Positions 41,001 to 44,000 of a DNA stretch of 64,000 nucleotides are shown here, one piece after another. Position 1 is the first letter of the stretch. Each line of letters opens with the position of its first letter. The stretch is from the NCBI RefSeq assembly GCF_054482525.1, contig NZ_CM137006.1; one strand, 5' to 3'. A program made the position numbers.

Positions 41001-44000
41001 CGCGATACGCCCAGTCACCGGAGCGACCATACAGCCCTTCCATCATCATTTCAGCCAAAATGTACGGCACGTTGTCGGCCTGAAGAACGCGTTTATGCGT
41101 CAGCGGATTCACACCACCCGCCGCCAGCGTCGCGCCAAGCGTTGCCAGTTCAACAGTATTGATGAGCGTGGAGCACTGACGGGTGTACACGTCACAGGCT
41201 TCCATTGCATCACAATAGAGATATCCGGCGGAGTACAGCAGCCAGGCAATGGCCCGGTTATGGAAGTTGGTTGTTTGTTCCGACTGGTTGACTTCGTCAG
41301 AGAGCGCTACCTGCTCACCAGCCAGTTGTTGTTGGATATGTAAAATTCGCTGCCAGCGTTGTTCGGCATTTTCAGCGTTAATCAGGCTGGTGGTGGCAAT
41401 AGCGCCAGCATTTACCAGTGGCGACAGCGGTTTGCCGCCATGCAACTCTAAGGCGATAACTGAGTTAAAGGGCAATCCGGTCGGGTCAGCGCCAACTTTG
41501 TCCTGTACCGCCTGCGGGCCGACATCTTCTAACGCAAGGGCTAACGTACAGACTTTCGAGATGGATTCCAGCGCAAAGCGGTAATCACTATCACCCGCGC
41601 GATAGATGTTGCCATCGCAGGTCACAATAGCCACTGCTGCCAGTTGACCAGGTACATTCGCCAGAAAGGGAATGTAGTCGGCATTTTGTCCGCCGTTAAG
41701 TGAGTGAAATTGGGTGTAAGCCTGATCCACTGCCTGCTGTAATTTGTTTGCATCTAACATCTTTTGTTAACTCCTTTTTATAGATGCGGGAGGTAATTCC
41801 TCACCCCGGTGCCGATTTTCAGGCATCCTGATTTAACTTAGCACCCGCAACTTAACTACAGGAAAACAAAGAGATAAATGTCTAATCCTGATGCAAATCG
41901 AGCCGATTTTTTTATCTTTACGGACTTTTACCCGCCTGGTTTATTAATTTCTTGACCTTCCCCTTGCTGGAAGGTTTAACCTTTATCACAGCCAGTCAAA
42001 ACTGTCTTAAAAGGAGTGTTTTATGTCACAAACTATCGACCTGACCCTGGACGGCCTGTCCTGCGGTCACTGCGTTAAACGCGTGAAAGAAAGTCTCGAA
42101 CAGCGCCCGGATGTTGAGCAGGCGGATGTGTCTGTCACTGAAGCGCACGTTACCGGGACTGCCAGTGCAGAACAGCTGATCGAAACCATCAAACAAGCGG
42201 GTTATGACGCATCTGTAAGCCACCCAAAGGCTAAACCGCTGGCGGAGTCATCAATCCCGTCGGAAGCACTGACAGCGGTTTCTGAGGCGCTTCCGGCAGC
42301 GACCGCCGATGACGATGACAGCCAGCAGTTGCTGCTGAGCGGCATGAGCTGCGCCAGCTGTGTCACCCGCGTACAAAATGCGCTGCAAAGCGTACCGGGC
42401 GTCACTCAGGCACGGGTAAACCTGGCGGAGCGTACTGCGCTGGTGATGGGCAGTGCCTCCCCACAAGATTTAGTGCAGGCGGTGGAAAAAGCGGGCTACG
42501 GCGCGGAAGCGATTGAAGATGACGCTAAACGCCGCGAGCGCCAGCAAGAAACCGCCGTCGCTACGATGAAGCGCTTCCGCTGGCAGGCAATTGTCGCACT
42601 GGCGGTGGGTATCCCGGTGATGGTCTGGGGGATGATCGGCGATAACATGATGGTCACCGCCGACAACCGCAGCCTGTGGTTGGTTATCGGCCTGATAACC
42701 CTGGCGGTAATGGTTTTCGCCGGCGGGCATTTTTACCGCAGCGCATGGAAAAGCCTGCTGAACGGTGCAGCGACGATGGATACGCTGGTGGCGCTAGGTA
42801 CTGGCGTGGCGTGGCTCTATTCGATGAGCGTCAACCTGTGGCCGCAGTGGTTCCCGATGGAAGCGCGACATCTTTATTACGAAGCCAGCGCGATGATTAT
42901 CGGTCTGATCAATCTCGGTCATATGCTGGAAGCGCGCGCACGTCAGCGTTCTTCAAAGGCGCTGGAGAAATTACTCGATTTAACCCCACCGACGGCGCGC
43001 CTGGTAACTGACGAAGGTGAAAAAAGCGTGCCGCTGGCAGATGTTCAGCCAGGTATGTTGCTGCGCCTGACGACCGGCGACCGTGTGCCGGTAGATGGTG
43101 AGATTACTCAAGGCGAAGCGTGGCTGGATGAAGCGATGCTGACGGGCGAACCTATCCCGCAGCAAAAAGGCGAAGGCGATAGCGTCCATGCCGGGACAGT
43201 GGTACAGGACGGCAGTGTGCTGTTTCGTGCCAGTGCGGTCGGCAGCCATACTACGCTGTCACGGATCATTCGCATGGTGCGACAGGCCCAGAGCAGCAAG
43301 CCTGAAATCGGCCAACTGGCGGATAAAATCTCCGCCGTGTTTGTGCCGGTAGTGGTAGTCATTGCGCTGATCAGTGCGGCAATCTGGTATTTCTTTGGTC
43401 CGGCACCGCAGATTGTCTATACCCTGGTGATTGCCACCACGGTGCTGATTATCGCCTGTCCGTGTGCGCTGGGACTGGCGACGCCGATGTCGATTATTTC
43501 GGGCGTCGGGCGGGCGGCTGAGTTTGGCGTGCTGGTGCGGGACGCCGACGCGCTGCAACGCGCCAGTACGCTCGACACCGTGGTGTTCGATAAAACCGGG
43601 ACGCTGACCGAAGGGAAGCCGCAGGTTGTCGCAGTGAAAACATTTGCTGATGTTGATGAAGCGCAAGCATTGCGTCTGGCGGCGGCGCTGGAGCAAGGTT
43701 CCAGCCACCCGCTGGCACGGGCGATCCTCGATAAAGCAGGTGATATGCAGCTACCGCAGGTCAACGGTTTCCGCACATTGCGCGGGCTGGGTGTGAGCGG
43801 TGAAGCTGAAGGTCATGCGGTATTGCTGGGCAATCAGGCGCTGTTAAATGACCAGCAAGTTGATACTAAAGCGATTGAGGCAGATATTTCAGCTCAGGCA
43901 TCGCAAGGGGCAACGCCTGTGCTGCTGGCGGTTGACGGGAAAGCGGTAGCCCTGCTGGCTGTACGCGATCCGTTGCGTAGTGATAGCGTGGCGGCGCTGC

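Follow-up and report, generated by a model that had tools for sequence, protein, structure and literature searches.

The copA locus raises the question of whether one messenger RNA serves for one protein or for two, namely a copper-exporting pump and, through a programmed -1 ribosomal frameshift, a small soluble copper chaperone. We analysed this locus in a stretch of 64,000 nucleotides from contig NZ_CM137006.1 (assembly GCF_054482525.1), referred to below as the window. The primary paper on the K-12 copA frameshift and on CopA(Z) is reportedly that of Meydan et al. 2017, Mol Cell 65:207. According to PMC5009743, copA of E. coli undergoes -1 frameshifting with high efficiency, which gives a 70-aa product, and PMC9548414 adds support from ribosome profiling and an independent study. 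PMC6771820 presents the truncated CopA(Z) as a copper chaperone by which cells are protected from an excess of the metal. Our analysis indicates that the site in the window is, with high probability, the canonical programmed -1 ribosomal frameshift cassette of E. coli copA. This cassette is already known; the finding is confirmatory and adds no new mechanism.

The copA gene and its promoter

The copA gene is intact. In the ORF listing of the window, ATG 42023 opens an 834-codon zero-frame ORF (42023..44527, + strand), in which the first frame 0 stop is found at 44525-44527. The encoded protein is a Cu(I)-exporting P1B-type ATPase of 834 aa, as shown by its Pfam domains (two HMA, E1-E2_ATPase and Hydrolase of the HAD type) and by its identity with K-12 CopA at 824/834 residues (99% over 834 aa). 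Likewise, in strain PCN033, which is 100% identical over 601 nt around the site, the gene is annotated copA.

Upstream of the gene, the putative copA promoter with its CueR operator occupies 41952..41982 (+) and is identical in sequence to that of K-12. We take this stretch to be the copA promoter/CueR operator in accordance with what is established for the MerR-type promoter PcopA. The -35 element is TTGACC (41952-57, +), the -10 element is TAACCT (41977-82, +), and a predicted CueR dyad, ACCTTCC-N7-GGAAGGT (41955-41975, +), lies inside the 19-bp spacer. A simple promoter scan that allowed spacers of 16-18 nt missed the copA promoter, as expected, because its spacer measures 19 bp. The host gene is copA, encoding the Cu(I) P1B-ATPase, and its promoter sequence indicates that it would be under CueR control. 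Since the promoter and the CueR operator are identical to those of K-12, both copA products should be copper-inducible.

The surroundings of the gene resemble the K-12 copA locus, with glsA-ybaT on one side and ybaP-ybaK-ushA on the other. ybaQ is absent next to copA in the window. In K-12, ybaT is followed by cueR; at this place the window has instead a gene for an outer membrane protein of the TolC family, together with a giant adhesin gene that is split.

The slippery heptamer and the -1 frame

The sequence of positions 42220-42239 (+) is ccaCCCAAAGGCTAAaccgc. Codon 67 of copA is CAC (42221-23), codon 68 is CCA (42224-26) and codon 69 is AAG (42227-29), and frame 0 across the site reads ...SHPKAKPL. 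Counting of codons from ATG 42023 therefore places C CCA AAG in the X XXY YYZ register. The slippery heptamer (42223..42229, +) comprises the last base of codon 67 together with codons 68-69, in agreement with the preliminary description, which had assigned it to codons 68-69. Reading from 42223 gives P K G and a stop, that is CCC AAA GGC TAA (42223-42234), so translation also upholds the claim that GGC TAA follows the heptamer in the -1 frame. The -1-frame codons GGC (Gly70) and UAA occupy 42229..42234 (+), and the stop has the same position in 61/61 loci compared across species (see below). The feature had been ended at 42235, one base past the stop, a trivial error; the 12-nt motif ends at 42234. 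The heptamer is separated from the downstream pseudoknot by a 6-nt spacer (42230..42235, +), delimited by the sequence and the position of stem 1, which contains the -1 stop.

By itself, the heptamer is not enriched in the window (5 occurrences versus 7.8 expected). All mechanically called ORFs of the window with a length of 150 aa or more, which together amount to 22,923 codons, were scanned for in-frame heptamers of the form X XXY YYZ with Y = A or T. The scan returned 22 such heptamers, only 2/22 of which have a -1 stop within 4 codons, namely the copA site and the dnaX site at 60013(-). Unlike the bare heptamer, the full arrangement of an in-frame heptamer with a near -1 stop is specific. 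Both copA and dnaX are -1 frameshift genes counted among the well-characterised non-mobile chromosomal examples of E. coli (PMC10861913). The heptamer A AAA AAG at 43020, inside copA, was considered as a second site and rejected on account of its wrong register, (43020-42023) mod 3 = 1.

The predicted product of the -1 frame

By translation, the recoded CopA(Z) frame (42023..42234, +) consists of 69 zero-frame codons, the -1 shift on 42223-42229, Gly70 and the UAA stop, giving 70 aa. The predicted product is a single complete HMA domain (Pfam, E = 8e-14). Its Pfam match corresponds to metal-binding domain 1 (HMA PF00403, residues 8-62; 42044..42208, +), and its CGHC copper site forms residues 14-17. 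Compared with K-12, the 70-aa product differs solely by I38V. The RefSeq record of K-12 MG1655 lists the small product as YP_009518752.1, 'soluble Cu(+) chaperone', encoded by a CDS that is joined from two pieces, begins at the copA start and measures 212 nt; the span of this CDS corresponds exactly to 42023-42234 in the window. The joined 212-nt CDS and the literature together confirm the earlier statement that this arrangement produces the CopA(Z) of about 70 aa in K-12.

For annotation, copA of this strain ought to be listed with a second product, the 70-aa copper chaperone, in addition to the pump. The automatic NCBI annotation (PGAP) of the identical PCN033 genome gives the pump only, without the small copA product. 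The PCN033 annotation does mark a 'DnaX frameshifting element', 17 kb away.

The downstream pseudoknot

An H-type pseudoknot, read independently from the sequence, starts 6 nt after the heptamer. Stem 1 (42236..42278, +) pairs CCGCUG (42236-41) with CAGCGG (42273-78), and is supported by pair counts in 58 sequences. One further pair, C42243-G42271, forms across the G42242/A42272 mismatch, and in E. coli the stem is extendable by AAA/UUU (42233-35 with 42279-81). Stem 1 alone has a free energy of -9.2 kcal/mol, and its 9-bp version -12.1. Stem 2 (42259..42297, +) pairs GUCGGAAGC (42259-67) with GCUUCCGGC (42289-97), as given by the minimum-free-energy fold and by pair counts. Its 5' arm lies within the loop of stem 1, which yields the H-type topology. 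The nested minimum-free-energy fold also has stem 2 as its principal stem, which evaluates to -14.2 kcal/mol on its own.

We examined covariation in an alignment of 58 Enterobacterales sequences. In stem 1, 90% of cells are paired and compensatory changes are seen in 4/8 pairs, for example C-G to U-A in 5 Pantoea sequences. In stem 2, the corresponding values are 88% of cells and 7/9 pairs, with examples in Photorhabdus and Yersinia, where G-C is replaced by C-G or U-A. Over both stems, 89.3% of cells are standard pairs, versus 17-51% when the partners are slid by 1-3 columns, a comparison in which the structure, drawn from the E. coli sequence, is favoured over the slid controls; none of the 500 shuffles reached the observed pairing values. 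Because of this bias, the compensatory double changes, found in 11/17 pairs of both stems, are the stronger evidence. For the 71 nt downstream, the energy of the nested fold is unexceptional (z = -1.37), in a calculation that cannot score pseudoknots. The z-score is uninformative for a pseudoknot, and covariation was therefore used in its place. Rfam 15 gave no family match at E <= 1 in 41800-42600. Since the region is identical to K-12, any structure that acts in K-12 is present in the window. In single-molecule assays, ribosomes are stalled by the copA pseudoknot (PMC6182138).

Identity with K-12 and distribution within E. coli

Comparison with K-12, which the preliminary description had proposed as a check, gave an exact match to the published and annotated site. 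We compared 521 nt with MG1655, covering the promoter, the 5' UTR and copA codons 1-132. From 42135 to at least 42420, where the alignment ends, the window does not differ from MG1655 at a single base; this segment begins 88 nt before the heptamer, includes the heptamer and the -1 stop, and continues for at least 191 nt downstream. The only differences are as follows: T/A at 41913, ahead of the promoter; an A-run at 42009-42012 in the 5' UTR, next to the Shine-Dalgarno sequence, that is longer by one A; two synonymous changes, in codons L25 and R28; and G/A at 42134, which results in I38V. Within the 521 nt compared, no difference touches the recoding signal. In the nascent chain, 68/69 zero-frame residues are identical to K-12, including all of residues 39-69, and I38V is the one that differs.

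These upstream differences could in principle alter the frameshift ratio or the total expression, so that the products would not be made as in K-12. In codons 1-132 and the 5' UTR, I38V, the synonymous changes in codons 25 and 28 and the extra A are the only differences from K-12 on which such an effect could rest. I38V could matter, as the CopA nascent chain is credited with part of the frameshift stimulation (PMC7558416). However, I38V is a conservative change situated 30 residues from the P-site residue and the peptidyl-transferase centre. The window shares with K-12 all of the 29 residues that directly precede the site, as well as the heptamer and the pseudoknot. Furthermore, the allele is common, occurring in at least 808/5426 E. 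coli genomes, and Val is present at residue 38 in most sampled Citrobacter loci (L003-L008). We therefore consider it very improbable that the strain departs from K-12 in this way, and favour the K-12 pattern of two products.

The cassette is widespread in the species. The 601 nt around the site are present with at least 95% identity in 5422/5426 complete E. coli genomes. The exact site, searched with a 30-mer centred on it and counted as an exact match of at least 28 nt, was found in 5408/5426 complete genomes, and 14 genomes have copA without the exact 30-mer. A 78-nt cassette is identical in 5348 E. coli genomes. Two single-mismatch variants were sampled, O145 RM12367-C1 and GN4738, with changes at 42210 and 42244, outside the heptamer and the stop; neither of these two natural variants has a broken heptamer. 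The site is ordinary, because it matches K-12 as does that of nearly every E. coli genome.

Conservation across Enterobacterales

A cross-species scan, in which each species was represented by one genome, yielded 61 copA loci from Enterobacterales. In all of them (61/61), C CCA AAR is in frame and a -1 stop comes after one sense codon; the heptamer is C CCA AAG in 39 loci and C CCA AAA in 22. The motif was seen in 0/17 more distant CopA loci from the same scan (alpha-proteobacteria, Thioalkalivibrio, Halomonas and others). Within Enterobacterales, the heptamer and the -1 stop are conserved against synonymous drift. The codon before CCA always ends in C (61/61 loci), even though 11 different codons for 10 amino acids are used there, and the Pro of the heptamer is always encoded by CCA (61/61). 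Zero-frame codon 70 has T as its third base in 61/61 loci, though it specifies A, S, T, P, F or C, and codon 71 always starts with RA in these loci. Being essentially invariant in E. coli and conserved across Enterobacterales, the recoding signal is under strong purifying selection.

This pattern bears on the possibility that the heptamer is a mere by-product of His-Pro-Lys coding, conserved at the protein level and with no recoding. The lack of enrichment of the heptamer in the window would fit such a reading, as would the protein-level conservation of the linker peptide downstream (PSEALTA, LPA). But the choice of codons is fixed where the protein varies, at CCA, at the C before CCA, at the T of codon 70 and at the RA of codon 71, and the pseudoknot stems show compensatory changes. 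Because of these synonymous-site constraints and the covariation, a purely protein-coding reading is excluded. Experimental proof published for K-12 (PMC9548414, PMC5009743, PMC7558416) likewise speaks against it, and we give it practically no credence. Programmed frameshifting accounts for the conserved bases.

In lineages whose CopA has three domains (three CxxC/HMA), the cassette is located after domain 2, at about codon 137. These lineages are Yersinia, Serratia, Photorhabdus, Xenorhabdus, Dickeya, Pectobacterium, Brenneria, Hafnia, Edwardsiella and Budvicia. The segment upstream of the cassette scores as two HMA domains in these lineages, and a tandem two-domain soluble product is therefore predicted. 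We propose that the cassette is universal in Enterobacterales and that three-domain lineages make a soluble chaperone of about 139 aa with two HMA domains in tandem, a generalization that we judge could go either way. The predicted two-HMA product is captured by neither PGAP nor Rfam. A literature search for the site in Yersinia, Serratia or Salmonella returned nothing relevant; the paper of Meydan et al. 2017, said to be the primary one, fell outside that search.

Expected production of the pump and the chaperone

It has reportedly been proposed by Drees et al. 2017 that the small chaperone arises from a short copA transcript. On this account, CopA(Z) would come mainly from a separate short message and ribosomal frameshifting would be minor. 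A short transcript would still require a stop codon, however, and frame 0 has none until 44525-44527. In addition, nothing resembling a terminator was detected on the + strand when 42023-42700 was scanned for intrinsic-terminator patterns. The heptamer and the -1 stop are kept against synonymous change in 61/61 species, as frameshifting predicts, while a short transcript leaves this unexplained. Ribosome profiling is also said to show a drop in footprint density at the copA site (PMC9548414). Thus, we regard a mainly transcriptional origin of the chaperone as improbable. The two routes are not mutually exclusive and may coexist.

The reading that we prefer is ribosomal frameshifting on the full copA message, and it suggests the following course of events. 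Ribosomes translating the CueR-controlled copA mRNA would reach C CCA AAG with tRNAPro in the P site and tRNALys in the A site. The H-type pseudoknot 6 nt downstream would impede translocation, with help from the nascent chain according to the literature. A fraction of the ribosomes would then slip one base back, the tRNAs re-pairing from CCA AAG to CCC AAA. Slipped ribosomes would decode GGC (Gly70), stop at UAA and release the 70-aa chaperone CopA(Z), which contains metal-binding domain 1 only, and ribosomes that do not slip would make the 834-aa pump. Frameshifting in this strain, and its efficiency, we infer from the sequence. The expectation that the strain should make both products, the pump and CopA(Z), is well founded on its identity with K-12.

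Comparison with known systems

The closest relative of the site is the K-12 copA cassette itself, with which it shares the heptamer, its register, the -1 GGC UAA, the spacer and the downstream sequence over at least 191 nt. The window differs from it in I38V, the two synonymous changes, the extra A in the 5' UTR and T/A at 41913.

The dnaX gene of E. coli offers a second comparison, and its element is present in the same window (Rfam RF00382, 96.8 bits, 59968-60032(-)). Both genes have an X XXA AAG heptamer (A AAA AAG in dnaX) decoded by tRNALys, and in dnaX, as in copA, the -1 stop comes one codon later and the truncated product is functional. In contrast, frameshifting in dnaX is stimulated by a Shine-Dalgarno-like element upstream of the site and by a simple hairpin; in copA, this role falls to an H-type pseudoknot together with the nascent chain. 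Despite the similar logic, membership of the copA element in the Rfam DnaX family RF00382 was rejected, with no match at E <= 1.

At the level of the product, CopA(Z) resembles the stand-alone chaperones of the CopZ/Atx1 type in Enterococcus hirae and Bacillus subtilis, which are likewise single HMA domains of about 70 aa with a CxxC motif. The stand-alone chaperone hands Cu(I) to CopA (PMC7558416). CopZ is encoded by a separate gene, whereas the copA chaperone is the N-terminal domain of the pump, released by recoding. Finally, the copA signal has in common with the -1 signals of IS3-family elements and viruses the X XXY YYZ heptamer, a spacer of 5-9 nt and an H-type pseudoknot. Those signals usually extend translation into a fusion protein (transposase, Gag-Pol), whereas the copA shift terminates it after one codon.

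Annotation of the copA frameshift element

There is a gap in the annotation of the copA frameshift element and its predicted 70-aa product, CopA(Z). Even at E <= 1 the element (42223-42297) had no match in Rfam 15, and full-length CopA is the only copA product in the PGAP annotation of PCN033, whose sequence around the site is 100% identical. Unlike CopA(Z), the DnaX frameshifting element is marked in that same annotation. A CDS for CopA(Z) was found only in the curated K-12 record, as compared with PCN033 PGAP and Rfam 15.

The window also carries the dnaX -1 frameshift element (59968-60032, minus strand; Rfam RF00382, 96.8 bits), with the heptamer A AAA AAG at 60007-60013 (minus strand) inside the ORF 59365..61296 (minus strand), 17.8 kb from the copA site. 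Among the in-frame X XXY YYZ heptamers in window ORFs of at least 150 aa, only those of the copA and dnaX sites are followed by a -1 stop no more than 4 codons on. PMC10861913 lists dnaX and copA as the two -1 cases among the well-characterised non-mobile chromosomal frameshift genes of E. coli.

Variation of copA in E. coli

We examined the copA 5' region in 5426 complete E. coli genomes. It had no match in 4 of them, and two matches in the collection lay on plasmids. In 14 genomes copA was present and the exact 30-mer centred on the frameshift site was absent. At 42134 the window reads GTC at codon 38, versus ATC in K-12, an I38V polymorphism in MBD1 and hence in CopA(Z). Exact 28-30-mers with the G allele occur in at least 808 of the 5426 genomes, and most sampled Citrobacter loci have Val at CopA residue 38. 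Two further differences from K-12 lie 5' of the gene: one extra A just upstream of the Shine-Dalgarno in the 5' UTR (42009-42012; window CTTAAAAGGAG versus K-12 CTTAAAGGAG), and a T/A difference at 41913, in the T-run 5' of the copA promoter.

Position of the frameshift site in three-domain CopA proteins

CopA harbors three CxxC/HMA domains in Serratia, Brenneria, Pectobacterium, Photorhabdus, Dickeya, Budvicia, Edwardsiella, Yersinia, Xenorhabdus and Hafnia (loci L035, L040, L042-L046, L048-L051, L053, L054 and L059-L061, one genome per species). At these loci the cassette C CCA AAA + codon + stop, with its pseudoknot, lies 3' of domain 2, the heptamer being at about codon 129-139, and Pfam placed two HMA stretches 5' of the site in three examples. 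Since the cassette follows domain 2, these lineages are predicted from sequence to make a tandem two-HMA product of ~139 aa. We found no report of such a product in a literature search, the primary 2017 paper (Meydan et al.) lying outside that search.

In Erwinia persicina CFBP8797 (L037), a zero-frame TAA stands 9 codons 3' of the heptamer at 1713, where the locus reads GAA TCA TAA TCT and its relatives GAA TCA GAA TCT. In this assembly the TAA interrupts full-length copA, whether as a nonsense codon or through a sequencing error, and the MBD1 part is still open.

Gene neighbourhood

Rfam matches on the minus strand also include sroB/ChiX sRNA (45492-45575), naRNA4, a REP-derived nucleoid-associated RNA (51256-51333), and STnc490 (56222-56345). 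The last adjoins the place of an IS200C transposase annotated in PCN033, between adk and htpG.

An island at 12717-39195 (minus strand) encodes, all on that strand, a TolC-family outer membrane protein (37840..39195), a giant adhesin whose gene is split between ORFs 30913..37737 and 16055..30937, which overlap, and a further pair of ORFs of 720 and 391 aa. PCN033 PGAP names the split adhesin 'BapA-related adhesin SiiEA, frameshifted'. Because no slippery heptamer is evident in the 25-nt overlap, the split probably reflects either an ordinary indel, which would make the gene a pseudogene, or a mistake in the assembly. The island lies 5' of ybaT, in the place occupied by cueR in K-12. The copA-ybaP intergenic region (44528-44698, 171 bp) lacks ybaQ, as does the PCN033 annotation, whereas in K-12 ybaQ occupies a copA-ybaP interval of 795 bp.
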